A stretch of 46,905 nucleotides of DNA, taken from IMG/VR virus record IMGVR_UViG_3300023283_000212, positions 1-46,905 of that record. The stretch is one strand, 5' to 3'. Position numbers and translations under genes: made by a program. The notes below the pieces were generated by a model that saw only the letters and a list, made by a program, of their open reading frames with translations, did no database searches and had not been told where the DNA came from. Position 1 is the first letter of the stretch, and every line of letters begins with the position of its first letter. This document shows, piece after piece, positions 6,101 to 19,124 of the stretch. The DNA comes from a virus. Its lineage: Duplodnaviria > Caudoviricetes.

Positions 6101-7260
6101 GGCTGTTCCGCTTCACCAACCCAATAACCGGGGAGGAAGAGCTGCTGCGGATTCCGCGGCCCTTCGACCACGGACAACTCTTCTCGGCCAGCGTGGAAGC
6201 GATGGCCGACGCCTGGTACCGCGAGGACCCCGAGGCGGTGACCGGGTGGATGGAGGTGTTTCGGGCTACTGCCACCCCGCCGCTGGCTCCGGCGTTGGTC
6301 GAAGAGGCCTTCGAGCAGGCGCTCAACTACGACGTCTTCTGGGAGCGGCCGATCGTACCGCGCGCCTACCAGGGGCAGTACGCGAGCCAGCAGTACAACG
6401 AGTACACGACCCGAGCGGCCCGCGCGCTCGCGAATCTGTCGGGCCAAGACCGCCTCAGCCCGATGCGGATCGACCACGCCATCCGCGGCCTGGCCGGTCC
6501 CCTCTCGCGCGACGTGCTGGAGACGGCCGGCACGCTCGGGATTCCGGTCGGACCCGATAAAGCGCTGGGCTGGAGCGAGATGGCCGACACGCCGGTCTTC
6601 GGCCGGCTGTTCCGCCGCGGGGGACCGCGGGGCTCGGGCGGCAAAAGCATCGACGCACTGTACGACCTGGCCGAGCGGCTCGACAAGCGCGGCAGGTCGC
6701 TCGAAGAGTCGCCCGACGAGCGGCGGCAGCGGCTCGCGATCGATGATGCGGTTACGGCGGTCAGCGCCCTGTTGCAGCTCCGCAAAGACGTGCGGCCGGG
6801 GCAGCCGCGGGCCGAACTGGTGAAGGAGGCCACGCGCATTGCGCAGGATGCGTTGCGGGCGGCCGGCACGCCGGAGCAGGCACCGGCGGAGCTCGATCGC
6901 GAGCCACTGCGGTATCTGCGCCGCAGCGCCGAAGCGCGGCGCAGAGCGGCACAACTCAAGCCGGGCGAGCGGCAGCCGGTGATCGTCGAAGCGGTCGGAG
7001 TGCTCGCCCGCCCGATCCCCTTGAGCGTCACCGCGCGCGAGCGCGAGGCGGGCCTCACGATCACCGAGAAACAGCGGAAGTGGAGAAACGACCGGAAGGT
7101 CGCCACCGAAACGCTCCGGCGGCTCGGCGTGACGCCGCGGGAGGCGATCGCCGACTTTGCCCGCTCGCTGCGAGGCGGTGAGCGGGCCCGACTGGAAAGG
7201 GCAAAACGTGGAGTCGCTCGAGCCTTTCGCGAGGCGGGGAATCGGGGCGATGGCCAGTGA
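1..7260 (+). CDS. C-terminal 2,419 aa of a giant polyvalent virion/ejection protein (begins at 45225 and wraps); zincin-like HExxH motifs, C-terminal LPD38-like domain
   Basis: Open frame from base 1. HELAH at 376-390 and HEIGH at 3916-3930. 'FIPFFNAAIQG...LLRIPRPFDHG...NYDVFWERPIVP...SPMRIDHAIRG' resembles LPD38. It is the last gene of a podovirus-type structural block. Confidence 0.8.
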   Translation, partial: QPGQQPPDIRGEIEALRAAEQPEQQPPDIRGEIEALRAAEQPGQQIAETFERLARETGVAARRAEPSAEQAEIARLAEAFGRQVVWFEPQQRGRAPKGFHDSRRPGTVFLNSQNTDRQSLYGILGHELAHDTGADLEAEFPEGLLAEALESYLGEANPRYAARVRRDPVIARKEAAARLIERFFEDDAFRAQVRRAEPDLWERIQALLERLLAWFRRAPQTEADRAVREALRVMRGKLDESAERPQEQPEPQSERREQPPRKEKVAAAETARKRQRHQIEEQVRREERMLREFFGKDLELAGDLARKPYFQSRLEAALEDLPERPLALDELLGTLRKRGAKKAELEFADFPTLYALRGKRKLPKGQLAAWLAGHRLRVETETLRDKQMRGQGPGYRERGTENLREILLTWPDAPAPLLGMHHRRSDVLAYVRVGDRRGADGEKVLYLENLQSDHEQAPAPKLQTPFARDWIPLALKRLLAEAADEGYDAVSWTSAEVQKERWRNVVTGGGAKWLEILYDEKIPGFLRKYSRQWGGKIEPVKTASGSGRAKFTTIDGAEIGIVGQPDRSANGRIETASVHYDIPGIGRGAMGVDRAELEEGRSGRTAAFERLLLTALERYEQDPESFSERVTNSVTRLGLRLTDQMRAALRHQPQILLASDAAGSLEGLPEEIAAALENLADYLYHVDGKTGRHNFRQALSERLGDGVLPYADVLWEHAQKTEIVEPAEPQPDDAPRMIVWDEHGGFDVSRVPPDVARDILAERDQWLGSPEAKQLKEVLEERSQLGEAEPREIPEADEARKLRALRDDAEHKLEEAKREHERQLSRRTKEIARERGVPKGRKANSLSKLKKYQPAIDAAERAARRDSEVQAAARAEQSALAEFEEFASAVAEQERQQQIAEHQRLVREHGEKKPGEILVNLRIPGDAIRIERWNPKQGKYLVDRGNFLESTGEFFPHTNTNVPVGETAYAVFRLYGTPDEARRRQAIDKQIIQAEREAANWRAEANRRAAEQRKDAEYAALFSETSPVKATLAKLLPAERQVAATFRGAPAIATQHWALWGDVPKKIRARHLHLVEKRGYAPLRSPENAVQLEDLLGDLEQSAAEALELVGYLRPEDAPKGWPWALLTDGERLLAVSAPYYDYLTAQGYTFAAGDAAFAAAGVRFVELHRNGELQGVLAPLGIGDEISLAQAERWKKRASEGSGKSLNMAADEARPDPVLPGAPQETPPTHDGPRRLTAPGPGEEDVTPISAPEVVEAIRQVAAAFGREIPLRVGRLGKRASLGVYKVEPMVARIRRALDSSTAAHEIGHAVEHIVFGWPQGGPWRLPLVDRRIQRELVELGKLLYGERKPAGGYKREGFAEFMRLWVENRELARSEAPRFARWFENVFLEAFPAARDAIDLARDAFTRWEKQGSYERGRQGIVELTFPERIRRWRRKFLDPLKWIEQGLEMLDPLARLEVQAEQLLDRKLKHDERAYLRGSALRMTHAPIVRRWVEQGITDFHGRPNGPSLDQIRSLVSQRERWDFLVYLWARRGLRMLRDERGPRDPGLSEADAQQIVREAEADPKRRVRWRLAAREVYDWNEGVLDYAAQASPAFADVVRRIRARDPGEYIPLSRVFDELDETYARSGGGASARLATLGGSLRGSARRIKEPFAQMIANAERIVYAAHQRHVLDAILALARVPGMGRVIEEVPVEQRPAAARTIGQLLEEINRRLAPAASAQVGGEIDSEALAQMITFFAPADRPKGADPIVPLYQDGKVRWYYLEDSLFRSLGSLEIWRVQQTGALGLILRGLGAHNRFVKAGITTLRASFAVANTIRDAGVYFFNTMERNPILAALSLLSGHAQVIWSALPGTTETKLVRLIKDRGGEIAPRLGQDIPHTRRAARRVFGWRVRDLPSNAFDAYRTLIGLPELGPRVAEAQNYLRSIGFTWDGSRELTVQESQEMMVAYKQVTTDFTAAGELARTLNQFIPFFNAAIQGPRALVRAARRDPAAMAARVLSVAALTLLYWWQKKDEEWYREIDDHSKYLYWLFRFTNPITGEEELLRIPRPFDHGQLFSASVEAMADAWYREDPEAVTGWMEVFRATATPPLAPALVEEAFEQALNYDVFWERPIVPRAYQGQYASQQYNEYTTRAARALANLSGQDRLSPMRIDHAIRGLAGPLSRDVLETAGTLGIPVGPDKALGWSEMADTPVFGRLFRRGGPRGSGGKSIDALYDLAERLDKRGRSLEESPDERRQRLAIDDAVTAVSALLQLRKDVRPGQPRAELVKEATRIAQDALRAAGTPEQAPAELDREPLRYLRRSAEARRRAAQLKPGERQPVIVEAVGVLARPIPLSVTAREREAGLTITEKQRKWRNDRKVATETLRRLGVTPREAIADFARSLRGGERARLERAKRGVARAFREAGNRGDGQ

Positions 7261-7761: not shown

Positions 7762-8452
7762 CTTAAAAGGGGTGTCGTCGGATTGGTAGTCCGATGACAT
7801 TCGCGGGCGGCTTCACAGGCAGAGAACGGATGAGCATCATGCCCGAAGGCAATCCGAGGCCCAAGATGTTGCGGGAGGATTTCGCGGGGTCCGCCCACGG
7901 TGCGGTGGATCGTGTTTCTCGTCGTGCTCTTCGCCCAGACACACAGAAGACCAAACGAGCGAAAGGACCTGATGGGCCGCGCAGGTGAGCGGGAGGGGAA
8001 GCCCCCGTATCACTGACGCACATCAGTTTTGGACGGCACCTGCGCGGCCCGGCAGATCCTTTCAAAAGTTTTTTTCGCGCGCAACTCGCGACGACCAACC
8101 ACGTTCGCGTGCCGCTGGCCGGCGGGAACGAAATTCTTGGCGCCGCAGCGCTTGACGTGCGCCGCCCGGGCCGCTTATCTTGGAAGCCGTCCAAAATAGA
8201 TGTGCGTTTCGCCCCCTCTCGGGCACTCCGCGACCAGCCACTTTTTCCAGTGGCGCACGCTGTCGCTGACCGAGGCCGGTGTGACGCACACATTGGCCGG
8301 TCGGAGCACATCCCGGCTTGGGCCGGTCAGCCCAGCGGAGCTACTTGCAGCACCGCCGGCGGCGCAGGTTTTTCGTACCGGGCCTGCGCTGCCTGGCGGG
8401 TGCTTGTCGCTCCGCAGAGCACGGAGTGCTGCGTCATGTCCCGCGATAGGAT

Positions 8453-8515
8453 CGGTCAGCCGCTTGTTTTTCCCGCTGCGGGCGCCGCCGGGAGGACGGC
8501 GAAAAAGGCTGACCG
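8453..8515 (+). promoter_or_regulatory. Long hairpin directly upstream of the integrase start codon
   Basis: CGGTCAGCC...TTTTTC pairs with GAAAAA-GGCTGACCG, ending 2 nt before ATG 8518. Confidence 0.5.
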
Positions 8516-8517
8516 CC

Positions 8518-9447
8518 ATGAATCTCCCTTCCCTACTCGCCCGTTTCGCGACGGAAAATCCGCGCCTCGATTCGCACCGCTCGGTCGAGGAGTACCGTTC
8601 GACGGTGCGCGTCTTTTGCCGCTGGTGGCGCACGCGGGGCGAAACCGCCGAGCCGCGCATCGCCGATCTGACCGATGCGGCGATCGCCGAGTGGCTGCGC
8701 GCTTTGGACGCGGCCGAGTACGCCCGGCCGACGATCAACAAGCACCGCCGGCAACTGGTGGCGCTGCTCGGCTGGGCCTGGGCCGAACACCTGCTGGCCG
8801 CGCCGCCCCGGGTGAAAAAGTACACCGAGCCCCGGCGCTGCCGGTCCGCCTTTACGCCCCGAGAGTTCCAGGAGCTCCTCGATGCGGCCGGGCGTCGCGA
8901 CGGGTATGTGGGGGGCGTGCCGGCCGGGATCTTCTGGCAGGCGCTGCTCTCGACGATTGCGACCTCGGGCGGGCGAATCAACGCAGTGATGCTCTCCCGT
9001 CGCGCGGAGTTCGACCCGCAGCGGCGGACGCTGCGGCTGGACTGCAAAGTCCAGAAGCAGCAGGCCGATCAAGTCTTCGTCCTTCCACCCACGACCGCAG
9101 CCGTGCTCGGGCGTTTGATCGCGATGCACGAGCAGGAACGGATTTTCGGTTGCTGGCCGCACGATGCGCGTCGTGGGTGGAAGACGTTGACCCGCCACTA
9201 CCGGCACATTCTGCAGGCCGCCGGACTGCCGCACCGCTCGCGCCGGGACCTCTTCCACAAGATCCGCGCGAGCGTCGCCACCTGGATCGCCGCCGAGCTC
9301 GGCGAGGAGGAAGCCCGCAAGTACCTGGGCCATTCGAACGTGCGCGTGACGCGCAGCTATCTCGATCTCTCGCAGCTCCCGAGCATCCGCGACCTGTCGG
9401 GCGTGTTGCCGCAGTTCGAGGTGGGCGACGTGCGGCTGGTGGGGTGA
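8518..9447 (+). CDS. int: Tyrosine recombinase / phage integrase
   Basis: SAM-like N-terminus; catalytic R (SGGRINAV), HxxR (FHKIR), LGH and Y (TRSY). Confidence 0.9.
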   Translation: MNLPSLLARFATENPRLDSHRSVEEYRSTVRVFCRWWRTRGETAEPRIADLTDAAIAEWLRALDAAEYARPTINKHRRQLVALLGWAWAEHLLAAPPRVKKYTEPRRCRSAFTPREFQELLDAAGRRDGYVGGVPAGIFWQALLSTIATSGGRINAVMLSRRAEFDPQRRTLRLDCKVQKQQADQVFVLPPTTAAVLGRLIAMHEQERIFGCWPHDARRGWKTLTRHYRHILQAAGLPHRSRRDLFHKIRASVATWIAAELGEEEARKYLGHSNVRVTRSYLDLSQLPSIRDLSGVLPQFEVGDVRLVG

Positions 9448-9529
9448 GATGCATGCCGCACAGGGGCCGCGCGAAGCGAGAACGAGATCGTGAGTCCCGG
9501 TCATCACTTTGTTTGCAAAGGAGATTCGG

Positions 9530-9727
9530 ATGCTTGTCGTGACCAGGAAACTGTGGGAGTCGGTGGTGATCGGCGAGGTGACGGTGACGGTCGTGCCGTC
9601 GCAAGGCGCAGGCGTGCGGCTCGCGATCGACGCGCCGCGCGACGTGCCGATTCTCAGAGCGGAGATCGCGGTGCGGGCGGGCGCGGACGGCGGCCGGCGA
9701 GTCGAAGCGGGAGGCTCTTCGCGATGA
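9530..9727 (+). CDS. csrA: Carbon storage regulator CsrA-family RNA-binding protein
   Basis: MLVVTRKLWESVVIGEVTVTV...VRLAIDAPRDVPILRAEI matches the CsrA signature. AAGGAG RBS. Confidence 0.9.
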   Translation: MLVVTRKLWESVVIGEVTVTVVPSQGAGVRLAIDAPRDVPILRAEIAVRAGADGGRRVEAGGSSR

Positions 9728-9924
9728 CCGCCGCGCCGAAAGACACGATTTGCGTGGCCCTCCGCGCGCACGGCGAGCACTGGGTGTTTTTCTTCTCCCC
9801 GCCCGACCGGCGCGAGTTTGTCCGGGCCGCCGCCCGCTGGGCCAGCGATTCGGGTCTCGCCTTCTCCTGGGAGGACGCCGTCCGGGCGATGTTCGCCGCG
9901 AAAAAGGAGATGGCGAGCGACTGA
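9724..9924 (+). CDS. Small conserved hypothetical protein of a type I recall from Planctomycetota
   Basis: ICVALRAHGEHWVFFF...RWASDSGLAFSWEDA; ATGA-coupled to csrA. Family recognition is from memory. Confidence 0.65.
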   Translation: MTAAPKDTICVALRAHGEHWVFFFSPPDRREFVRAAARWASDSGLAFSWEDAVRAMFAAKKEMASD

Positions 9925-9935
9925 TAAGGAGCCGC

Positions 9936-10163
9936 ATGATGCAGACGCATTTGGAGCCGCCAGGTGGCGGCTGGATCGGCGCGGACGATCCGCCGGCGAC
10001 GGGCGAGACGGTGCTGGTCTACTGCCGCAAGTGGGCCGAGCCGATTTGGCTCGCGTTTTTCGACCAGCGCGAATCGCGTTGGCGGCCGGCCGACGTTCCG
10101 GCCGGCACGTTCATCGCCGACCCGACGCACTGGCGGCCGCTGCCCGAGGAGCCGGAGCGATGA
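9936..10163 (+). CDS. DUF551-like phage protein
   Basis: WI...PP...VLVY...PTHWRPLPEEP motif; AAGGAG RBS. Confidence 0.75.
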   Translation: MMQTHLEPPGGGWIGADDPPATGETVLVYCRKWAEPIWLAFFDQRESRWRPADVPAGTFIADPTHWRPLPEEPER

Positions 10164-10594
10164 AAACCAATAACGGGCCGAGCGACCCGCTATCGATCAC
10201 GCAATCCGAGCTCGTGTTTCCCGGCCGACCTAACGGGCCGAGCGACCCGCTATCGATCACGCAATCCGAGCTCGTGTTTCCCGGCCGACCTAACGGGCCG
10301 AGCGACCCGCTATCGATCACGCAATCCGAGCTCGTGTTTCCCGGCCGACCGGTGGTGCAGGTGAGCTGCGTCGCGAGGTTTCGGGTCTGGGAAAGCCGCT
10401 GCGGCCGGTATCGCGTAGTCCACGCGCATGTCACGCTCGGCGAGGACCTTCCGCGCGGCCGGCGGTGGCCCGACCGGTACACGGCGCAGCAGCGAGACGA
10501 GGCGGGCTGGCGCGTTTTGTCGAGGCACCGCAAGCGGACCCGCGCGCTTGCCGCCTGCCGCCGACACGCGGGAAGAAAGCGAGGCCCGGCATGA
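10160..10594 (+). CDS. Hypothetical protein with three 20-aa repeats
   Basis: ATGA-coupled; GGAG RBS; (NGPSDPLSITQSELVFPGRP)x3. Confidence 0.65.
   Translation: MKTNNGPSDPLSITQSELVFPGRPNGPSDPLSITQSELVFPGRPNGPSDPLSITQSELVFPGRPVVQVSCVARFRVWESRCGRYRVVHAHVTLGEDLPRGRRWPDRYTAQQRDEAGWRVLSRHRKRTRALAACRRHAGRKRGPA
10171..10350 (+). repeat. Perfect 60-bp tandem repeat x3
   Basis: Three identical adjacent units with no spacers. Confidence 0.95.
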
Positions 10595-10613
10595 GCGAAC
10601 ACGAAAAACAACC

Positions 10614-10703
10614 AGGCAACGTCCAAGATCACGGGGCGGCCGTGATCGACATTGATTTCAAAACCGACGACGCCGGCCGCTCCCGTGCATCGTTTTGTTC
10701 GCC
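10614..10703 (-). other. attC-like site A (left boundary of the array)
   Basis: AGGCAAC-gtccaa-GATCACGGGGCGGCCG...CGGCCGC-t-CCCGTG-c-ATC-gtttt-GTTCGCC. Confidence 0.8.
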
Positions 10704-10727
10704 GCTTTTTGGCGGAAGGAGTTGACC

Positions 10728-11066
10728 ATGCCCGCACCGAAACAACCATGCCAGACATTGCCGCAGTGGTTGAAACAGAATCTTGGGCCGCGCTGTTTGG
10801 CGCCATTGACCGGAACCGATTCCAAAGCGCTTTCCGCTGCAGTGCAGATTGTTGCGCTGTACGCATACCATCCAGCGCCACAGGTCGCGGAAGCATTCGG
10901 CCTGACCGTGATGCAGATCCAGCAATCGTGTTGGCCGTTGGCGTACCATGCCATCGCGCACGTGATGGACTGGACTGACCGCGGCGAGTTGTGGCGCGAG
11001 GCGAAGTTGCCATCGATTCCAGTTGGCATTTGCAAGTTTGAGTCGCGAGAAGACGTGTTCGTGTAG
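10728..11066 (+). CDS. Cassette hypothetical protein
   Basis: AAGGAG RBS, ATG 10728; stop 2 nt before the next core site. Confidence 0.7.
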   Translation: MPAPKQPCQTLPQWLKQNLGPRCLAPLTGTDSKALSAAVQIVALYAYHPAPQVAEAFGLTVMQIQQSCWPLAYHAIAHVMDWTDRGELWREAKLPSIPVGICKFESREDVFV

Positions 11067-11067
11067 C

Positions 11068-11088
11068 GACGAACTATGATTATCAGGA
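11068..11088 (-). other. Short simple recombination site B
   Basis: GACGAAC-TATGA-TTATCAGG, sharing AACTATGATTATC with site G. Confidence 0.55.
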
Positions 11089-11338
11089 TTTCGCGATGCC
11101 CGGACCAGTCTCAGACTCATGGATGCGACGGCTTGGTGACCTTTTAAGGTCCGGCGGGGTAACGCCCGTGCTAATAGGCTGGCCGTTCAGTTGCTCGCTT
11201 GGACCGAGAGCGGAGGCAGCGCCATGACGCAGCCCTCCGTGGTTAGCAGGAGCCGTGGCGTCAGCGAATCGGTTGGGTACAGCACGGCTTGGCCGCTGGC
11301 ATGCGCTCACTGCTGATGCCAGCCCCGTGTTTTGATGC

Positions 11339-11462
11339 AGAGAACGACTGAGTTCACGCGGCCACGGGCCACGGAGAAAAGACGATGAAACAGACCACAC
11401 GAGAACAACCAGCGTCGAAGCGCGAGGGCGGTAGTGGCTCGGCGTGCAACGATTTGTTATCC
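11339..11462 (-). other. attC-like site C (contains RBS and ATG 11385)
   Basis: AGAGAAC-gactga-GTTCACGCGGCCAC...GTGGCtcgGCGTG-c-AAC-gattt-GTTATCC. Confidence 0.8.
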
Positions 11463-12185
11463 GTCGTCTCGTTTGGCGGCGGAATCAACAGTACGGCGTT
11501 GCTGATAGGTTTACACGAACGCGGGCAGACGCCGGACTTGGTGATGTTCGCAGACACCGGAGGCGAGAAGCCGGAGACATACGAGCACATCGCATTCATG
11601 GTGATTTGGTGCGGCCAGCGAGGAATGCCGATCAGGATTGTTGCGGAAACGCAAACGCTTGAGGACGACTGCCGCAACCGCGAGACGTTGCCAGGTAGGG
11701 TGTTTGGCTTCGGATCGTGCAGCGAGCATTTCAAGATAAGGCCGCAGCGCCGCTACCTGCGCGAACAGGGAATCGACGCCGTAACGTGGTTGGTTGGATT
11801 CCATGCGGGCGAACAGCGGCGAGCATGGAGAGGAGCGACCGGAAACGACACAATCCGATACCCGCTGATCGAATGGGGCTGGCATCAAGAGGATTGCATT
11901 GCCGCGATCAAGCGGCACGGCATGTCCGTGCCCGTGAAGTCCGCCTGCTTTTATTGTCCCTCAATGACGAAACGGGAAGTTCTGCGCTTGCGACGCAGCC
12001 ACCCGGAATTATTTGAGCGGGCGATTGAGATGGAACGCGATGCCATCGAATCCGGGAATCTGCAAACCGTGAAAGGTTTGGGACGCCACTGGAGCTGGGA
12101 ACAGCTGGCGACTGCCGACGCGGCACAATTGCGGTTGTTCGAGGATTGTCAGGTCCCGCTTTGTGACGTGTGTTTCGACGGATAA
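11385..12185 (+). CDS. PAPS reductase (CysH)-like / adenine nucleotide alpha-hydrolase family protein
   Basis: SFGGGINS PP-loop, FADTGGE, YPL and SACFYCP motifs. Confidence 0.85.
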   Translation: MKQTTREQPASKREGGSGSACNDLLSVVSFGGGINSTALLIGLHERGQTPDLVMFADTGGEKPETYEHIAFMVIWCGQRGMPIRIVAETQTLEDDCRNRETLPGRVFGFGSCSEHFKIRPQRRYLREQGIDAVTWLVGFHAGEQRRAWRGATGNDTIRYPLIEWGWHQEDCIAAIKRHGMSVPVKSACFYCPSMTKREVLRLRRSHPELFERAIEMERDAIESGNLQTVKGLGRHWSWEQLATADAAQLRLFEDCQVPLCDVCFDG

Positions 12186-12278
12186 CGACTGAGTTCGCGC
12201 GGCCACGGGCCGGAGAGAAAACGTATGAATGACGAGACGACAAAAAGCGAAGAACCAGCGTCGAAGCGCGAGTTATCC
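12180..12278 (-). other. Decayed attC-like site D (paralog of site C with a 30-nt deletion in the right arm)
   Basis: Left arm is near-identical to site C. The right arm jumps from GCGCGAG to TTATCC. Confidence 0.7.
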
Positions 12279-12809
12279 GTTTTTTCGCGTGAGATCGCGG
12301 AACAAATTGGAGACTGGATCGCACAGGGCCAGCAGTATGCGCAACAAGAGCAGGCCGACGAACCGTACTGGGACCACGTTTGCGCCGAAATTCGCGAGTA
12401 CCTCGATCGAGCGCATGACATTGGATGGCACGCCGCCGCACACGCCGCGATTACCGTTTGCAACGTCCGTGCCGAGCGAGGCGACGACATCGGAACGCCG
12501 CGAAGCAATGAAGCGGCAAAGTGTGGATTGCAGATCGAGGCCGTGTTGGTGACGCACACAATGACGTTGCCGCGCGAATACCAGAGAGACGAGAAGTTGC
12601 CGGCCCCTGTGGGAGGCGATGAGCCGGAGTGCCCACATTGCGGGACCGTGCACGAAATGCCGAAGTGGGTCGAACAGTACCACACGTTCAATTGCGATTG
12701 CGGTTGGGCGTTTCAAGCTGAGCGGGAAACCGTCATTGTGTCGCGACCGCTCGAATACCGTGAGTGGACCAAGGTAACCGGGTTGCCGGACCAACGGAGA
12801 AACCCATGA
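12225..12809 (+). CDS. Cassette hypothetical protein with Zn-ribbon (CPHC...CDC)
   Basis: GGAGAG RBS inside site D. Reads into site E and stops at the ATGA overlap. Confidence 0.7.
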   Translation: MNDETTKSEEPASKRELSVFSREIAEQIGDWIAQGQQYAQQEQADEPYWDHVCAEIREYLDRAHDIGWHAAAHAAITVCNVRAERGDDIGTPRSNEAAKCGLQIEAVLVTHTMTLPREYQRDEKLPAPVGGDEPECPHCGTVHEMPKWVEQYHTFNCDCGWAFQAERETVIVSRPLEYREWTKVTGLPDQRRNP

Positions 12810-12890
12810 ATCAACGGACGATGTACAACGAATCGATTGACGTTGACAAACCGAAAGACGAGGCAACTCCGGTTGACCGCCTTGTTATCC
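12760..12890 (-). other. Decayed attC-like site E (left AAC core lost)
   Basis: gaccaa-GGTAACCGGGTTGCC...GGCAAC-t-CCGGTT-g-ACC-gcctt-GTTATCC. GTG stands where AAC is expected. Confidence 0.7.
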
Positions 12891-13282
12891 TGCCTGTCAA
12901 AGCGGTGACCATCTCCCAGCCGTTTGCATCGTTGATTGCTGACGGTGCCAAGTTTGTTGAGAACCGGACGTGGGAGTGCCGATACCGTGGCCCGATCGCG
13001 ATTCATGCAGGGAAGGGGACGCAGTATCTGGACCGCCGCGAATTGCGGGAATACCCGAACGGCGGAATCGTGGCCGTGGCGAACCTGTTGGCGTGCATGC
13101 CGTTGGATTCGATGCGGCGCATCAGCCGGTCGCAACGCATCCAGCGAACAGAGTTGACGATTGGCGAAGTGCTGGACCATGAACACACGGAAGGTCCGTG
13201 GTGTTGGATTTTGAGCGACGTGAAACCGTGCAAGTTCTTTCCGTGCCGTGGGGCGCAGGGACTGTGGGACTTTGCTGGATAA
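12806..13282 (+). CDS. ASCH domain protein
   Basis: KAVTISQPFASLIADGAKFVENRTW...RGPIAIHAG...GPWCWIL...RGAQGLW. Confidence 0.9.
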   Translation: MNQRTMYNESIDVDKPKDEATPVDRLVILPVKAVTISQPFASLIADGAKFVENRTWECRYRGPIAIHAGKGTQYLDRRELREYPNGGIVAVANLLACMPLDSMRRISRSQRIQRTELTIGEVLDHEHTEGPWCWILSDVKPCKFFPCRGAQGLWDFAG

Positions 13283-13405
13283 CGCTGGTGATAACCGGAC
13301 CACGGACCAACGGAGTTGACGTTGAATGACCAAGGAAGTTGACAACCAGATTGACGGTGGAACTGCCGAGACGGTAGTGGCTCCGTGTTCATCACATTGT
13401 TATGT
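13277..13405 (-). other. attC-like site F (contains RBS and ATG 13326)
   Basis: GGATAAC-gctggt-GATAACCGGACCAC...GTGG-c-TCCG-t-GTT-c-ATC-acatt-GTTATGT. Confidence 0.8.
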
Positions 13406-13940
13406 GCCGTATCGGACAATCTTGATTGATCCCCCGTGGCCGCAAGTGATGAGCGGAAAGTACAAGACAGCGAAGAATCAGCGGGCCGCCGATTTGCCAT
13501 ACAACCCGATGACGCTGGAGGAAATGTTGCGGTTGCCTGTGAAGGCATTGGGCAGTGATGACGCCCATTTATGGCTGTGGACAACCAATCAATTCCTCGA
13601 GGACGGCTTCGTGTTGATGCGTGCATGGGGGTTCAAGTATTTGGCGGCGATCCACGCGATTAAGCCGAACGGGATCGGCAATTACTTCGTGCATCGGACG
13701 CAAACGCTGTTGTTCGGGTACAAGACCAAGTGCAAGTTTCCGTTGGAGCGGTACAAGCCGAACATCATCGAAGTGCCGGACCCAAGGCGGCACAGCGAGA
13801 AGTGGGACGAAACGTATGAGTACATCGAGTCCGTCTCGCCCGGCCCGCGTGTCGAGCTGTTCGCACGCCGGAAACGTCCCGGCTGGGACGTGTGGGGCAA
13901 CGAAGTGGACTCGGACATCGAGTTGGAAGTAGGCACATAA
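13326..13940 (+). CDS. MT-A70 family N6-adenine methyltransferase
   Basis: YRTILIDPPW, HLWLWTTN, AWGFKY, HSEK and ELFARR...GWDVWGNE motifs. Confidence 0.9.
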   Translation: MTKEVDNQIDGGTAETVVAPCSSHCYVPYRTILIDPPWPQVMSGKYKTAKNQRAADLPYNPMTLEEMLRLPVKALGSDDAHLWLWTTNQFLEDGFVLMRAWGFKYLAAIHAIKPNGIGNYFVHRTQTLLFGYKTKCKFPLERYKPNIIEVPDPRRHSEKWDETYEYIESVSPGPRVELFARRKRPGWDVWGNEVDSDIELEVGT

Positions 13941-13955
13941 CTATGATTATCCAGC
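13935..13955 (-). other. Short simple recombination site G (contains ATG 13943)
   Basis: ACATAAC-TATGA-TTATCCAGC. TTATCCAGC is the complement of this cassette's end GCTGGATAA. Confidence 0.65.
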
Positions 13956-14254
13956 CGTTTCCACCGCGAGACGGCAACGAATGGGATTGCCAGTGCGCCC
14001 GTTGCGGATCGTCCGCAGATTGGCGGGAGTGTGAATCGTGCGACGAGGACGGCTTTGACGGGCACGATTGCGGCGAGGATTGCTGCATGTGCCTGTGTCC
14101 AAAAGAAAACGTTCCGTGCCAGTTTTGCGACGGCCACGGCGGAGATTATTGGTGCCTATCATCGCGCGAGTGGTGTGAGGCGAATCCACTAGAAGGACGA
14201 GAGCAAATCGAGCGAGGACAGATCGAGTGGTTCCGTGTCCGTGATGCTGGATAA
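13943..14254 (+). CDS. Cys-rich Zn-finger cassette protein
   Basis: Multiple CxxC motifs; TAA lies in the core of site H. Confidence 0.75.
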   Translation: MIIQPFPPRDGNEWDCQCARCGSSADWRECESCDEDGFDGHDCGEDCCMCLCPKENVPCQFCDGHGGDYWCLSSREWCEANPLEGREQIERGQIEWFRVRDAG

Positions 14255-14338
14255 CGACCAGCGTAACCGGGACCGCCCGGTTGACGTGGAATACAGAGTT
14301 GACGCGGAGGCGGTCTCCGGTTGACGCATTTGTTCTTC
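14249..14338 (-). other. attC-like site H
   Basis: GGATAAC-gaccag-CGTAACCGGGACCGCC...GGCGGTC-t-CCGGTT-g-ACG-cattt-GTTCTTC. Confidence 0.85.
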
Positions 14339-14354
14339 AGTTTTTGGTGACGAT

Positions 14355-14798
14355 ATGCGAAAAGCGAGACTGATAGAAGACGCCGAAAACGACGTCGTCC
14401 ACGGCAATGGTCGGGAGCAGATTCGAGCATTGTGTGAGCGTGCTCGATTCCAATCCGAGTGGTATTCAGTGCGTTGGAAACGGCTGCATGAATATCTTCG
14501 CGACCATGCGGACCAAGACACGTTCGAGCGATCCTGTAACATCATGGCGAACGGAACTGCCGACTCGATGGAACCGCCAACGTACGGGCAGATTTTGAAT
14601 GTGTTGCAGCAGGCCATCGAGCAGTCGATAGCGTTGGCAGATACGGGCAGCCATGCCCACAAATCGCGGTTCGATCCGGATGGCGTTGGCGAAATTCCTC
14701 CGGGTTGGCGAGTGGTTGAAGCGATGACGGAACGACTCAAGGACGGGCTGAAATGGGGGACGTCGCTGATGCGGCGATCCACGAGCACTGTTGACTGA
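14355..14798 (+). CDS. Cassette hypothetical protein
   Basis: The ORF fills the interval between sites H and I. Confidence 0.7.
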   Translation: MRKARLIEDAENDVVHGNGREQIRALCERARFQSEWYSVRWKRLHEYLRDHADQDTFERSCNIMANGTADSMEPPTYGQILNVLQQAIEQSIALADTGSHAHKSRFDPDGVGEIPPGWRVVEAMTERLKDGLKWGTSLMRRSTSTVD

Positions 14799-14882
14799 AG
14801 AACGTTTCGGATCACCGGGCGGAAAGAAAGCTATGAGTACAGAAACAGCGTTGCCCGCTCCGGTGCATCCGGCTGGTTATGT
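14797..14882 (-). other. attC-like site I (contains ATG 14833)
   Basis: GAAGAAC-gtttc-GGATCACCGGGCGG...CCGC-t-CCGGTG-c-ATCC-ggctg-GTTATGT. Confidence 0.8.
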
Positions 14883-15243
14883 GCCGCATCCGTTGCGTGT
14901 GCAGCGAAAGCGGACCAAGGGATTCCGGTTGCAATCAGGCGTCATTTGCGTGACAAGGCCCGGCCCGTGGGGAAACCCGTTCAAGATGCAGTCAGCACTC
15001 GAAGCGGGCTACGCGAACACCGAAGCCGAGGCCCGTGCGTTGTGCGTCGAGTGTTTCGAGGATTGGCTGTTAAAAGGTGACCTTTCCGAGTGGTGGTTTG
15101 GTGCAAGCCGTGAATCGTGGATGTGGATGCGAGAGAACTTGTCAACGCTGGCGAGTCAGAAGGTGGCGTGCTTCTGTCCGCTGGATCGTCCGTGTCACGC
15201 CGACGTGCTGGCAAAGTGGGCACCGATGGCGTGTCCGTTTTAG
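14833..15243 (+). CDS. DUF4326 domain protein
   Basis: RVQRKRTKG...VTRPGPWGNPF...ACFCPLDRPCHADVL. Confidence 0.85.
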   Translation: MSTETALPAPVHPAGYVPHPLRVQRKRTKGFRLQSGVICVTRPGPWGNPFKMQSALEAGYANTEAEARALCVECFEDWLLKGDLSEWWFGASRESWMWMRENLSTLASQKVACFCPLDRPCHADVLAKWAPMACPF

Positions 15244-15245
15244 GC

Positions 15246-15265
15246 ACATAACTTGGTCGTTATGC
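15246..15265 (-). other. Short simple site J (copy of terminal site N)
   Basis: ACATAAC-TTGGTC-GTTATGC. Confidence 0.65.
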
Positions 15266-15377
15266 CGCAAGTTGCCGAGGTTGCTAAGCGAGTTGCCAAG
15301 CGGAGTTTTGGTGGACGGAAAAAAGTGAGCAGGCGAGGCGTAACTACCTGAAAGAGTCCCAGCTTACGGCCGCCGAG
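15249..15377 (+). repeat. Internal copy of the array's right boundary and the 5' part of the replication gene (16953-17175)
   Basis: Near-identical sequence. It has a single copy of the upstream duplicated unit and lacks 21 nt between two GTTGCCAAG repeats, which removes the ATG. Confidence 0.9.
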
Positions 15378-15437
15378 GTCGATCAGGATTGGCCCAACGA
15401 TGACAAGTTGGATGATTTTCTGATCCGGCAACAGTCC

Positions 15438-15569
15438 ACATAACGTTAAAGATCACCGGGCACATGGCCCAACGGGATAGGCGATGGAACAACCAAACAA
15501 CGTAGCCGAAGGATTGGACGTGGAAACGCCGGAAGACGAATGTGCTCCGTGTGCATCGCCTTGTTATCG
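15438..15569 (-). other. attC-like site K (contains ATG 15484)
   Basis: ACATAAC-gttaaa-GATCACCGGGCACAT...ATGTGC-t-CCG-t-GTG-c-ATC-gcctt-GTTATCG. Confidence 0.85.
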
Positions 15570-15672
15570 GGATTCTCGGACGCGGATTCAGCGATTGTTG
15601 AATTACAAACGATACATTGATTGGTTAATTGAAAAGGAGCTGGAAAATGTGGACAGGCAACGACACGCTTGA
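15484..15672 (+). CDS. Small cassette protein (first of two genes in cassette K)
   Basis: Starts inside the attC-like loop, like neighbouring cassette genes. Confidence 0.5.
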   Translation: MEQPNNVAEGLDVETPEDECAPCASPCYRDSRTRIQRLLNYKRYIDWLIEKELENVDRQRHA

Positions 15673-16189
15673 CGCTTTGCGATCGAAGGCAGCGTCGATG
15701 ACGACGGGAACCATTTGCGTGAACATTGAGCAACTGAATGGGTTTGGCCGCGTTCTCCGGGTCTCGGAAGAGATCATCGAAGAGGCCAAAGAGACGCGTA
15801 CATGGCCAGACAAGCGGATCAGCGCAAAGCTGTTGTACGAGCTTCAGGACGCGCTCAAGGCGTGCGGGAACATGGCGAAGAAATTGAAACACGCACCGGA
15901 GGAACTGTGCGGTGAGAGTCTGCGGTATTTTCGGGACGGAAACATGATGTGCTGTGTGTTCGGCGACTTCGAGAACTTGCAGGAAAGTCCAGCAGGTTTT
16001 GGAAAAACGGACGACGAAGCGTATGAAGACTTGAAGCAGCAGATCGTGTGTGAGACGTGTGGCGGCGATGGTCGTGTTCCGGTGACGAATACGTGGTCTG
16101 TGGACCGTGGCACGAAGTTTCGGCGTGATTACGAGGAACAAGTTACGGGAGAATGCCCAGCGTGTCACGGCGTTGGGTTTTCCCGATAA
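15647..16189 (+). CDS. Cassette hypothetical protein with DnaJ-type CxxCxGxG motifs
   Basis: AAGGAG RBS; CETCGGDG and CPACHGVG; TAA lies in the core of site L. Confidence 0.75.
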   Translation: MWTGNDTLDALRSKAASMTTGTICVNIEQLNGFGRVLRVSEEIIEEAKETRTWPDKRISAKLLYELQDALKACGNMAKKLKHAPEELCGESLRYFRDGNMMCCVFGDFENLQESPAGFGKTDDEAYEDLKQQIVCETCGGDGRVPVTNTWSVDRGTKFRRDYEEQVTGECPACHGVGFSR

Positions 16190-16274
16190 CGACTGAGGTC
16201 AGCGGGCGGCGGCCGTTGACTTTGATTTCATGTGCAGCGTCAACCGCCGCTCCGTCTGCACCGTTTTGTTATCT
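16184..16274 (-). other. attC-like site L
   Basis: CGATAAC-gactga-GGTCAGCGGGCGGCGG...CCGCCGC-t-CCG-t-CTG-c-ACC-gtttt-GTTATCT. Confidence 0.85.
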
Positions 16275-16286
16275 GCGGATCATGCA

Positions 16287-16628
16287 ATGAGCAACCTACG
16301 AAGCGACTGCCGCGACCTTGTGAAAGACCGTGAAGCCGGGGACGTTTGGCGAACACATATCGAGCGACTGTGCTACCAGATCGACGAAGTTGAGGAACGC
16401 TGGCACGCAGCAGAGCGGAAGTTGAACGCCGCCCGTGAGGCGTTGGAGCAGATCGTATGCACGGAAGGCGAAGACCGTGGCGTGGTAATGGTCGATCACG
16501 AAAGCCCGACACGGTACGACTCGGAGCGAAAATGTCAGGTGTATTTGTGCGAGAACTTTTCGCCGCTGGGGGACGCTTTGATTTCATTGTGGGATGGACT
16601 TCAACGCGACGTTGAGTTGAGCAGATAA
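16287..16628 (+). CDS. Cassette hypothetical protein (coiled coil); alternative start 16230 inside site L
   Basis: The ORF fills the L-M interval; TAA lies in the core of site M. Confidence 0.7.
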   Translation: MSNLRSDCRDLVKDREAGDVWRTHIERLCYQIDEVEERWHAAERKLNAAREALEQIVCTEGEDRGVVMVDHESPTRYDSERKCQVYLCENFSPLGDALISLWDGLQRDVELSR

Positions 16629-16713
16629 CGTCCAAGGTCACCGGGCCGCCGCCAGTGACCTCGAACTTGAATTAACGCGCCGTCGGCGGCTCCGGTGCAC
16701 CGTTTTGTTATCC
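16623..16713 (-). other. attC-like site M
   Basis: AGATAAC-gtccaa-GGTCACCGGGCCGCCG...CGGCGGC-t-CCGGTG-c-ACC-gtttt-GTTATCC. Confidence 0.85.
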
Positions 16714-16722
16714 GGATTTCAC

Positions 16723-16956
16723 ATGGCGACTACGAGAACACCACCGACGTTTCAGTTTGATGAGCGATCAGTGCTGAAGTGTCCGGGCTGTCAGACACCG
16801 CTGAAGCGAGTGCGTCAGACAGGCGGCATGATGTTGAACGATGATCAGTTTGACGCGATCAAAGCGGGCGACTTCTATTGCGATCAGTGTCCGGGCGATC
16901 GCGGCAAGTCAGGTTTGCGATACTTTTGGAAGGCCGAGTTGGGGATTGACGGATAA
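16723..16956 (+). CDS. Small Zn-ribbon cassette protein
   Basis: CPGC...CDQC; TAA lies in the core of site N. Confidence 0.7.
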   Translation: MATTRTPPTFQFDERSVLKCPGCQTPLKRVRQTGGMMLNDDQFDAIKAGDFYCDQCPGDRGKSGLRYFWKAELGIDG

Positions 16957-16970
16957 CTTGGTCGTTATGC
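16951..16970 (-). other. Terminal simple site N, candidate attI-like insertion point
   Basis: GGATAAC-TTGGTC-GTTATGC: two inverted cores 6 nt apart. It sits at the array end that is 5' in attC orientation. Confidence 0.6.
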
Positions 16971-17605
16971 CGCAAGTTGCCGAGGTTGCTGAGCGAGTTG
17001 CCAAGCTATGGACGGCAGTTTCCAAGCGGAGTTTTGTTATGCCGCAAGTTGCCGAGGTTGCTAAGCGAGTTGCCAAGCTATGGATGGCAGTTGCCAAGCG
17101 GAGTTTTGGTGGACGGAAAAAAGTGAGCAGGCGAGGCGTAACTACCTGAAAGAGTCCCAGCTTACGGCCGCCGAGATCGAGCTGTTGGTGATCTTGGGGG
17201 GCTGTGGAAAAGTTGTCCGCAGAGACGGCAACTGGCTGGTTGCCAAGGTTGCCAAGCGTGAGTTTGCCGGCCGGGGATTCGCGGCCGAAACGCTCCGCAA
17301 GGCGGCTGTCCGACTGTCCGAGTCCGAGTCCGCGCTGGTCCGAATCGAGCCGGGAAAAGGCGGAAAACCCAGCGTTTATTGGGTTGATTGCGGCCGCCTG
17401 TCCGAGTTGTCCGAGCTGCCGCGAGCGAGTTTCGCCGGCGGGAAAAAATTTCCGCCGCCGGAGCTTGGCAACTCGCTTGGCAACCTTGGCAACTCGCTAC
17501 CCCGTGTAAAAGAAACAAGCGCATTACGCCGTGCATCCGTGAACCGTGAACCGTGCGCTCGTGCGGGAGCAAGCCGCGTGCCGGTTGCCGAGCCGGTTGC
17601 CAAGA
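16964..17605. repeat. GTTGCC(A/G)AG iteron-like repeats and a 72-bp duplication; putative replication origin
   Basis: Many direct copies in 16976-17256 and 17584-17604. Inverted copies CTTGGCAAC at 17464, 17476 and 17485 lie inside the rep-like gene. Confidence 0.6.
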
Positions 17606-17979
17606 TCGACGACATCGACGACATCGACGGCCTCGGGGCGATCCTTAGATCGGATCGCCCCTGGTCGGATCTCCGCGACTGGCACGTGAGGACCGGGGAC
17701 CTGAGGCTCGCCCGACTACTGTACGCACACAGTGGGCAGACGGGGCAACTGGCAGAGCAGGGATACGCGAAGCTGTTCCTGGCGCAGTTTCACCACTGCG
17801 CAAATCTGCGGAAGGCGCACATACGCGATCCGAACCGCAGCGACGGGCAGGGGGGACGCCACAACGCGGCGGCGATCCTGGCGTCGCTCGTACGCAGCGG
17901 CCGGCGAGATGTGATCCAAAACGCCTCCTGGGAGTGGGCCGAATCGCAACTGCGCCGCCGGCAGCCGGTCGAAGATTGA
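17080..17979 (+). CDS. Putative replication initiator (winged-helix-like N-terminus, internal iterons)
   Basis: wHTH-like 'AETLRKAAVRLSES...VRIEPGKGGKPSVYWVD' followed by a low-complexity repeat-bearing linker, as in lambda O-like initiators. Confidence 0.5.
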   Translation: MDGSCQAEFWWTEKSEQARRNYLKESQLTAAEIELLVILGGCGKVVRRDGNWLVAKVAKREFAGRGFAAETLRKAAVRLSESESALVRIEPGKGGKPSVYWVDCGRLSELSELPRASFAGGKKFPPPELGNSLGNLGNSLPRVKETSALRRASVNREPCARAGASRVPVAEPVAKIDDIDDIDGLGAILRSDRPWSDLRDWHVRTGDLRLARLLYAHSGQTGQLAEQGYAKLFLAQFHHCANLRKAHIRDPNRSDGQGGRHNAAAILASLVRSGRRDVIQNASWEWAESQLRRRQPVED

Positions 17980-18039
17980 TTTGTGCCGAGACCAGGGCCG
18001 CCACGTGCGAACGAACAGCGTGAATCGGCGTCGGTCCAA

Positions 18040-18390
18040 CGCCTGGTTAGCCAGCTTTTTGGCGCGGCTCGCGGTGTCGAGTTACGCATCGGTCAGCAGC
18101 GGTGCTTCTTCTGCCTGGCGCCGTGCGGCGAATCGAATGTGGCCGCGAAGCACGTCAAGAGGTCGTTCACCAGCCGTGACACCGTGGGCGGCGATGAACG
18201 AAAAAGCGACCGTCACAATGGCGGACGGCGAAGTCCGCGAGAATCAAAAGGTCAGATCGTATTCGTGGCTGATCGCCAACGGCAACGCGATCGCGGCCGT
18301 GTGTCTCACAGCCGCGAGCAGATCGTCGTGACGCTCGAAGGCGATCCGATCACCTGCACGCCGGCCGAACTTCGCGGCCGGCTGAGTCAG
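18040..18390 (+). pseudogene. csf1: Fragmented type IV CRISPR Csf1 (Cas8-like) relic
   Basis: Three pieces in alternating frames: VSQLF...CFFCLAPC...KRSFTSRDTV / AMNEKATVTMADGEVRENQKVRSYSW / RGRVSHSREQIVVTLEGDPI...ELRGRL. Resemblance is from memory. Confidence 0.45.
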
Positions 18391-18541
18391 ATTCCGCCGG
18401 GCGATACTCATTTAATAGCTGTAATGCCTCAGTCAATTCGCGCTGATGCGCCTTGAGCAGGGCGGCCACTCGCCGCAGTCTCTCCACCTCGCGTTGCAGC
18501 AATTCGTTTTGGTGTGCGAGCTGTTTCTGTTTTGTTTTCAT
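18350..18541 (-). CDS. Small coiled-coil protein
   Basis: MKTKQKQLAHQNELLQREVERL...; purine-rich GAGGAG leader. Confidence 0.65.
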   Translation of the reverse strand: MKTKQKQLAHQNELLQREVERLRRVAALLKAHQRELTEALQLLNEYRPAESDSAGREVRPACR

Positions 18542-18571
18542 CTCTCTGTCTCTCTCCTCGCTAGTGGTTGT

Positions 18572-18597
18572 GCCGGCTGTTGGTGGGCCGCCGGCTT
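18572..18597 (-). repeat. 26-bp leader element repeated at 19148-19173
   Basis: GCCGGCTGTTGGTGGGCCGCCGGCTT is identical upstream of both leftward genes. Confidence 0.85.
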
Positions 18598-18686
18598 CGC
18601 CCGGTGGAGCATTCCGCGTGCTCCGTGCGGCCCCCCTGTGAGCGAGGCCGGCGGCGGGGGGCGGACCGCCGGCGAGAGAGTCTGTG

Positions 18687-19124
18687 TTACGTGGGGCCCA
18701 TCGGTTCCTCATGCCGCCGCAGCAGGTCCACCCGGATCTGCTGCCGGGTACCGGAGTAGTCCGGCCACCCGTCTGTGTGCCCCGACGGCGTGGCGGATCG
18801 CCTCGCGGCATAAAACTCGCGGTCGTATTCCTGTCGTGCTCGCGTCGGCGCGAGCGGCGGGGGGCCGTCGTGGAGCTGGTGCACGACGGCTACGGCGGAG
18901 GCGTGGACTCTAACGTCCACCCCCAACGTTTTTGCGTCGGCCCAGTCGGTGACCGCCTCCCCGGGCTCTCCCGGGAACTCAACCGTGAATGTTTCGCTTT
19001 TCCCGCCGACCCGTGACGCGAATATTTGGGGCGTCATGCCCTTTTCAAATAAGTACGTAATTCCGTCTGCGCCAATGCCCCATCCTAGCGGACGCGGACG
19101 CGGAAACTCTTCTGCGAATGTCAT
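18687..19124 (-). CDS. Hypothetical protein
   Basis: MTFAEEFPRPRPLGWG...; GAGGAGAGGGAG RBS; downstream of the leftward promoter. Confidence 0.65.
   Translation of the reverse strand: MTFAEEFPRPRPLGWGIGADGITYLFEKGMTPQIFASRVGGKSETFTVEFPGEPGEAVTDWADAKTLGVDVRVHASAVAVVHQLHDGPPPLAPTRARQEYDREFYAARRSATPSGHTDGWPDYSGTRQQIRVDLLRRHEEPMGPT

Follow-up and report, generated by a model that had tools for sequence, protein, structure and literature searches.

In the genome of a tailed virus (Duplodnaviria; Caudoviricetes; IMG/VR record IMGVR_UViG_3300023283_000212), a row of hairpins bounded by AAC and GTT lies between positions 10614 and 16970, and several of them contain an ATG in frame with the gene that follows. 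The window analyzed here is the whole stretch of 46,905 nucleotides (nt). A first-pass annotation had proposed that such a hairpin serves at once as recombination substrate, translation-initiation module, and coding sequence. The locus raises the question of how one sequence could carry these three functions and which piece of DNA moves. According to our analysis, it is very likely that the locus is a phage-borne array of integron attC sites with its genes on the attC bottom strand. The unit would run from AA↓C through the hairpin and the gene to the next TAA↓ (the arrow marks the crossover), the hairpin loop likely supplying the ribosome-binding site and start codon, and units would probably be moved by the integron integrase (IntI) of the host. 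Papers are cited by identifier, each for the excerpts used here.

The hairpins are attC sites and the genes lie on their bottom strand

The array (10614-16970) comprises ten full sites (A, C, D, E, F, H, I, K, L, and M) and four minimal ones (11068, G, J, and N). Sites and genes are as follows.

10614..10703, + strand: attC site A, intact, leftmost in the array; bottom-strand geometry, 12/12 stem pairs, extrahelical C16/T23 in the 3′ arm
11068..11085, + strand: minimal site AAC-TATG-ATTATC, by its sequence of the same form as G
11339..11462, + strand: attC site C with GGAG and ATG 11385, encoding a 24-amino-acid (aa) leader
11385..12185, + strand: PAPS-reductase-family gene (C; PF01507); it ends with the TAA that belongs to the TAA↓C of site D
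12180..12278, + strand: site D with GGAG and ATG 12225; copy of the left arm and leader of C, right arm deleted (30 nt, in frame)
12225..12809, + strand: gene D, 194 aa, no family; reads through the left arm of E, its TGA overlapping the ATG of E
12772..12890, + strand: site E, left L box degenerate, with GGAG and ATG 12806
12806..13282, + strand: ASCH-domain gene (E; PF04266); its stop is the TAA↓C of site F
13277..13405, + strand: attC site F with GGAG and ATG 13326
13326..13940, + strand: MT-A70 methyltransferase gene (F; PF05063); its stop is the TAA↓C of site G
13935..13952, + strand: minimal site G, no hairpin, contains ATG 13943; crossover point of joints 13938→14801 and 15240→13930
13943..14254, + strand: Cys-rich gene G
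14249..14338, + strand: attC site H, intact, without ATG; 12/12 pairs, G16/T23; joint 14249→16185; its gene (14355-14798) starts downstream
14797..14882, + strand: attC site I, intact, ATG 14833 with a weak Shine-Dalgarno (SD) sequence; 12/12 pairs; joints at 14800/14801; mobile with its gene
14833..15243, + strand: DUF4326 gene (I; PF14216); it follows H in the window, and in run X2 it lies between F and G
15246..15437, + strand: minimal site J together with DNA copied from downstream of N (91% across 116 nt) and a unique tail of 55 nt
15438..15569, + strand: site K, within which lie ATG 15484, predicted paired and with a weak SD, and GTG 15520, which has an SD
15484..16189, + strand: two-gene cassette K (15484-15672 and 15647-16189); the last stop is the TAA↓C of L
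16184..16274, + strand: attC site L; ATG 16230 is in frame and lacks an SD, 16287 is an alternative start, and the gene ends at 16628; joint 14249→16185
16623..16713, + strand: attC site M, intact, without ATG; 12/12 pairs, C16/T23; gene 16723-16956
16951..16970, + strand: minimal site N, right end of the array; joints 14800→16955 and 16957→15237

Minimal sites 11068-11085 and 13935-13952 both read AAC-TATG-ATTATC, and the ATG of G lies two bases past the stop of F. A further candidate, B (11157-11248), was dropped, no attC fold having been obtained.

All ten full sites (86-132 nt) run from AAC to GTT, as in the attC definition (RYYYAAC/GTTRRRY, 57-141 nt); flanking letters deviate from RYYY/RRRY in several of them. 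In PMC5027507, the extrahelical bases lie opposite the bottom-strand AAC, at positions 16 and 23/24 with T as the last one, and the IntI cut is placed in this AAC. Sites A, H, I, and M form 12/12 stem pairs on the plus strand, with extra bases 16 and 23 (T) in the 3′ arm, whereas the reverse model gives 7-8/12. Because this pairing and these extrahelical bases match the published geometry, our results showed that the coding (plus) strand is the attC bottom strand and that the genes are inverted compared to normal cassettes. The polarity of a canonical cassette, a top-strand open reading frame (ORF) ahead of its own attC, with its start past GTTRRRY within the cassette, fails here: the genes are on the bottom strand and the attC stands in front of them. 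A second viral family has the same geometry, with G/T extrahelical bases at 77/139 sites.

With the fixed stem model, C and F give 9/12 pairs and K and L 7/12, L folding well when free; L-box pairing with extrahelical bases about 6 bp apart failed for D and E. In the folding model, the L-box-paired form reaches a probability of 0.84-0.96 in A, H, I, L, and M, 0.74 in F, and 0.43 in C; it is 0.00 in D, E, and K.

As a control of polarity, sites were detected by geometry alone in fetched loci, which gave 162 viral sites in 84 loci and 22 bacterial sites in 12 loci. The bacterial set is small because the exact two-arm pattern was matched in 1/61 Pirellulaceae-family genomes; the right-arm pattern gives mostly chance matches, the left arm being present in 24/254 among the matches listed. 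For 40 viral sites drawn at random from the 162, PHROGs matches of the ORF to the right of the site numbered 13 for the bottom strand and 0 for the top strand. At the 16 of the 22 bacterial sites with ORFs on both strands, Pfam matches were found on the top strand in 5/16 and on the bottom strand in 0/16. Among 144 MT-A70 loci, 5 have an upstream site, every one in bottom geometry, and the in-gene control gave 0. SD-plus-ATG ORFs are more numerous on the bottom strand in 61 of the 84 viral loci and fewer in 9. ORF length is a weak test of strand, the bottom ORF being longer at 87/162 viral and 7/22 bacterial sites.

The flank at GTT also resembles, in reverse complement, the AAC flank of the following site: at least 9 of 12 letters agree in 8/11 units, with a mean of 9.1/12 for the next site versus 7.0 for a unit's own site. 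This R-box complementarity around each gene is a mark of true cassettes, yet it is compatible with either crossover end.

As a family, these integron attC sites are of the Planctomycete type. The array works like an integron array and is a cluster of attC sites lacking an integron integrase (CALIN).

Natural variants place the crossover at the AAC end

Contigs from four runs (X1-X4) of one study were placed on window positions 9500-18500 at 85% likeness. Five joints were found between near-identical phage sequences, all five at the AAC end of a site and none at GTT:

13938→14801 (G to I): 3 shared letters; depth 12.9 in X1 and 38.2 in X2
14249→16185 (H to L): 9 shared letters; depth 29.3 in X2
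14800→16955 (I to N): 3 shared letters (AAC); depth 3.1 in X4
15240→13930 (end of gene I to site G): 13 shared letters; 151-letter short side in X3, matching loose end in X2
16957→15237: X1 and X2; extra DNA, about 830 letters in X2, entering at N

Runs of 3-13 shared letters would be too short to produce joins in an assembly based on longer words (word length 31). In X2, the main form, put together from overlapping contigs, is F-I-G-L-M-new-N, compared to F-G-H-I-J-K-L-M-N in the window; X1 and X2 each contain both forms. The link between J and K is real in X1, where one contig covers 15348-16957. The roughly 830 letters at the AAC of N (16957; X1 and X2) are present in a large part of the population, and their end resembles that of cassette I (GGCACATAAC).

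Since every one of these joints is at an AAC end, the hairpin moves together with the start and the gene body, as a single unit. For these variants, the mobile unit is the C, the hairpin, the gene, and TAA, with the crossover AA↓C at the left end of the hairpin. The TAA of TAA↓C is the stop codon of the upstream gene at 7/11 junctions, and the observed joints preserve the stop of F, the start and stop of I, and the start of G. Because the crossover lies within the upstream stop codon or directly behind it, and each gene takes its start along, the frames of both neighbors survive a rearrangement, and the codon phase of GTT is immaterial. These variants, together with the attC geometry, bear out the annotation's view of the sites as recombination substrates.

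In the mechanism that we propose, a host integron integrase would excise and re-insert units made of AA↓C, the hairpin, and its own gene up to the next TAA↓. The loop would give this gene its ribosome-binding site and start codon. N is likely an entry point of the attI/attG kind, and N and G could both act as double-stranded entry sites; the start-bearing hairpins C-F may be relaxing into fixed genes. Among possible agents of the shuffling, host IntI appears the likeliest. Prophage induction is often driven by the SOS response, as IntI is. That IntI is commonly SOS-induced is reported in PMC8946536.

Unit J (15246-15437) is a copy of entry site N and of about 130 nt behind it (16951-17180), has a different tail, and stands between I and K in the manner of a cassette; it has the look of phage DNA recently captured from the phage's own entry site. 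In other phages (L346:-:1769-2266; L134:+:2285-3154), the upstream gene often continues past AAC and ends within or beyond the hairpin, so that their attC would also code for C-terminal tails.

Probable translation starts inside the sites

Each of the six ATGs (11385, 12225, 12806, 13326, 14833, and 15484) is flanked by the two L boxes of its site and lies 34-49 nt from the site's left end, as the first-pass annotation had noted for the hairpin region. Its phrase "in the loop" is right as to position and nominal for D, E, and K, because these lack the L-box-paired fold. The GGAG that it reported is present in C, D, E, and F, separated from the ATG by 8, 9, 6, and 10 nt, respectively; in its place, I shows only GGAA and K just GGGA. 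Among the ten full sites of the window, four combine GGAG with ATG and seven have an in-frame ATG (these six and L at 16230). More often than chance would give, an SD-like word with an ATG occurs in the loop on the gene strand, in 36/162 viral sites, compared to 7/162 on the opposite strand and 0/22 bacterial sites in the same orientation.

Comparison with homologs showed that the conserved domains (PAPS reductase, ASCH, MT-A70, and DUF4326) start 2-6 codons past the GTT core. The five leader peptides it named are in frame with the downstream gene, which makes the sites coding sequence; its idea of the right arm as leader does not extend to D, from which the right arm is deleted. Of 120 PAPS reductase homologs, 116 could be anchored: 44 begin at most 7 residues from SFGG and 50 have a leader of at least 8 extra residues. 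In gene C, the first in-frame start past the core is at aa 39, beyond the SFGGG motif, and gene D has none before aa 102. ASCH homologs begin at or at most 3 residues from MKAL in 100/117 anchored sequences; in gene E, the position of the native Met is a Val (GTC), and ATG 12806 with its GGAG overlaps the TGA of D. Among 116 MT-A70 homologs, 63 begin near the domain and 38 have leaders, and the closest of these leaders end in peptides like that of the right arm, in all three phases.

Judged by their sequences, a start inside the site is well supported for C, D, and E, since their domains begin just after GTT without a usable downstream start, and it is likely for F. For I, ATG 14833, with its weak SD, is a candidate start beside GTG 14881, which matches the native start of DUF4326 homologs. 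For K, there are two candidate starts, ATG 15484 and GTG 15520, both in the loop. The proposed role of the sites as translation-initiation modules most likely holds.

Points against this reading and alternative explanations

Several observations weigh against a mobile unit that carries its own start and is cut at AA↓C. Across the sites of the phage's family, extrahelical base 16 is mostly C rather than the usual G. SD-ATG counts per bacterial locus fail to separate the strands (3 versus 3, with 6 ties), and in the small vir1 set the SD-ATG pair is found in 5 loops on the gene strand versus 4 on the other. The joints come from assembled contigs of a single study, and in four of the five the sides are 24-43 letters long; X1 is possibly the window's own source sample, and the order in X2 was assembled from overlapping contigs. 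The left ends of C, D, E, and F take part in no joint, 10321-13938 being a single contig in X1 and X2. Two links touch right arms: 11388→12862 (X3/X4; 29-letter side, depth 27-29 versus 0-10 for the phage) and the low-depth 16709→12889 (X2/X4; 13 foreign letters). We read them tentatively as other replicons with related sites. Finally, in-frame GTG codons without SD follow the core directly in F (13404, where three close homologs have Ala) and in I (14881). Beside these links, we noted in X3/X4 a commoner co-occurring replicon whose site combines a C-like SD/ATG part with an E-like right arm ahead of another body (11359-11388, 12862-12890).

The alternative that survives best, though unlikely, is a crossover at G↓TT, in which start and leader remain with the upstream unit and are fused to an incoming body. 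This would explain why domains begin just past GTT. It would also explain why an identical 14-aa leader precedes an MT-A70 protein (P0009) and a PAPS reductase (P0144), why one 15-aa leader stands ahead of three unrelated bodies (L456, L523, and L539), and why C and D have a common leader and different bodies. In its favor, too, viral pairs with similar hairpins (n = 74) share the downstream gene in 4 cases and the upstream gene in 2. Seen from the genes, this linkage does not discriminate between the ends, similar hairpins being found in 4/9 downstream-sharing and 2/7 upstream-sharing pairs. However, none of the five joints is at GTT even though right arms have longer direct repeats than left ends. 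The GTT core lies in phase 3 in C and D, phase 1 in E, and phase 2 in F, I, and K, and the viral sites are likewise mixed (phase 1, 25-27; phase 2, 10; phase 3, 20), so that G↓TT swaps would usually shift the frame. The 10-nt complementarity between the two flanks of a gene is left unaccounted for, and top-strand recombination is 1,000-10,000 times rarer (PMC5027507). As a routine reaction the G↓TT crossover fails; it could have occurred as a rare top-strand reaction that makes cassettes.

The idea that the hairpins are mRNA switches that hide the start and tune expression appears improbable. It draws on the hindrance of downstream translation by attC hairpins in class 1 integrons (PMC8876359, section 3.2) and on K, whose AUG is predicted to be paired (0.03 unpaired). 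Against it, the AUG of C, D, E, F, and I is unpaired with a probability of 0.69-0.90, a second input is not evident, and start-bearing sites are weak RNA folds. Compared to shuffled sequences, they fold little or no better (z of −0.3 to −2.0), whereas A, H, L, and M reach −3.2 to −4.7; the suggested coupling of mRNA folding to expression was not borne out. In the folding model, the weak structure of these sites looks like a relaxation that permits initiation, rather than a switch.

It is very improbable that the sites are inert relics and that the variants arose by microhomology or phage homologous recombination at shared RYYYAAC words. Two joints do share 9 and 13 letters, D, E, and K lack a recombinogenic fold, and the phage has no IntI. 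However, two other joints share just the 3 letters AAC, cassette I is found at two positions, extra DNA enters exactly at the AAC of N, and the longer right-arm repeats have no joints.

Least probable of all is that the true starts lie downstream of the hairpins and that the leaders are longest-ORF artefacts. In favor of it, H and M do begin downstream, I and F have a GTG after the core, and I and K lack a clear SD. Against it, C would then lose SFGGG, D would first start at aa 102, E has GTC in place of its native Met and an ATG that overlaps the stop of D, and the SD-ATG pair is enriched in loops on the viral gene strand.

Shared leaders and the making of cassettes

The mobile unit with its own start, cut at AA↓C, thus remains our reading of the present array. 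The same leader on unrelated bodies nevertheless suggests that hairpin and body were also joined at GTT at some stage, most simply at cassette making. The annotation's proposal that a site supplies a start to captured gene bodies may hold for cassette birth; as an ongoing reaction it is contradicted by the five AAC joints and the mixed GTT phases. Top-strand recombination is a candidate for the joining at GTT, but it is rare and does not account for the flank complementarity.

A broader proposal is tentative and, in our view, somewhat doubtful: phages would run a mirror-image integron on host IntI, in which start-bearing attC sites were joined at GTT to the first codons of ordinary phage genes, replacing the native Met and giving self-starting units that shuffle at AA↓C with every frame kept. 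If this were true, the reversed polarity would put host cassettes, which are often anti-phage, antisense in the phage array, and phage cassettes would be silent in a host integron. Cassette birth could then be watched in phage early regions. To our knowledge, how a gene first gains an attC is an open question. Gene families that have both native-Met members and members with a hairpin leader, 2-6 codons before the domain, offer before-and-after pairs for it.

A 72-nt tandem duplication (window 16964-17107) starts at N's GTT and stops at a look-alike, G↓GT, and the deletion of D relative to C likewise rejoins at G↓TT; both may be rare events at the GTT end. The 5′ flank of gene C (GTTATCCGTCG, 11456-11466) reads as the reverse complement of the codons that end the same gene, Asp-Gly-stop (12174-12186), and may have been templated from the gene's 3′ end. 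Many leaderless homologs of this PAPS reductase also end in CFDG.

Relation to known systems

Integron cassettes are usually taken as units of an ORF followed by its attC. The phage array resembles the cassettes and attC sites of PMC5027507 in its R and L boxes, 6/5-nt central spacer, extrahelical bases 16 and 23, bottom-strand AAC crossover, complementary R boxes, and loss or re-ordering of whole units. It differs from them in that the genes are on the bottom strand, the attC comes first, and starts and leaders lie inside it; there is no intI, no Pc or attI could be recognized, and the cargo consists of phage accessory genes.

Phage CALINs, attC clusters without an integrase that carry DNA methyltransferase cargo, are described in PMC9892861, where 5/6 tested sites recombined with IntI1. 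The present array shares with them the integrase-less cluster in a phage and the methyltransferase cargo. It differs in that two of those arrays are called typical in structure and natural shuffling is not shown there; in the main text, the terms "start codon", "ribosome", and "N-terminal" are absent. ORF-11, ORF-17, and ORF-18 in attI1 and short ORFs in attC (PMC8876359) are comparable in that a recombination site gives translation signals to cassette genes. Those ORFs are short and act by coupling, or are borne by the platform, whereas in the phage each start would sit within the attC of the cassette itself, joined in frame to the protein. Synthetic coding attC sites (PMC7439510) are likewise both attC and protein code; they are engineered, whereas the phage sites are natural and N-terminal. 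The attG sites (bioRxiv 10.1101/2022.09.11.507474) are short double-stranded GWT targets of IntI, and by analogy minimal sites G, J, and N could act likewise; unlike attG, G and N have an inverted second box and are used more than once.

Our literature search, in which most subscription papers were out of reach, found no description of inverted phage cassettes with a start inside attC. Compared to the known phage CALINs, the attI1/attC ORFs, and the synthetic coding attC sites, the inverted polarity together with the start in attC appears to be new. A phage uses attC with the opposite polarity and appears to place translation starts within it, and population variants fix the crossover to the base. 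The array provides natural examples of attC sites that are coding sequence, and in-site starts would account for a class of odd N-terminal extensions in phage proteins.

The phage and its host

The window is a complete 46.9-kb virus record with direct terminal repeats at its ends. Based on its genes, the phage is a temperate tailed phage, as it encodes an integrase, a CsrA-like regulator, a terminase, and head and portal-like proteins:

8200..9447, + strand: phage tyrosine integrase, not an integron integrase (PF02899/PF00589, phrog_1)

This gene is the single PF00589 match in the phage genome and shows a weak match to Planctomycete IntI over 60 aa. TIGR02249 (IntI) has no match in the complete genome, and no intI gene lies beside the array. 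The array sits in an accessory block with a GC content of 54-59%, versus 63-75%. Among the matches listed, the phage's attC family is also found in Rhodopirellula, Rubripirellula, and Pirellulaceae records, and named homologs come from Allorhodopirellula, Pirellula, and Planctomicrobium; we therefore infer a Planctomycete host. IntI scores above the cut-off in 4/5 Planctomycete genomes that match the right-arm pattern.

Close relatives of the cassettes were found neither in viral contigs nor in a metagenome scan covering 5/64 parts. An Rfam scan of 9000-19000 gave a single chance match (E 0.58), and promoter and terminator scans stayed at shuffle level (2 promoters versus 2.1 expected by chance).

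Elsewhere in the window, a large polyvalent protein of 2336 aa with an LPD38 domain is encoded at 250-7260. Three exact 60-nt tandem repeats, each beginning with TAAC, lie in frame within a gene (10171-10350). A 19-nt inverted repeat (95%) links the integrase gene (8420-8438) with a non-coding stretch ahead of site C (11223-11241). The gene that follows the array (299 aa) contains GGTTGCCAAG-type repeats, both direct and inverted (17036-17607), which suggest a possible replication origin.

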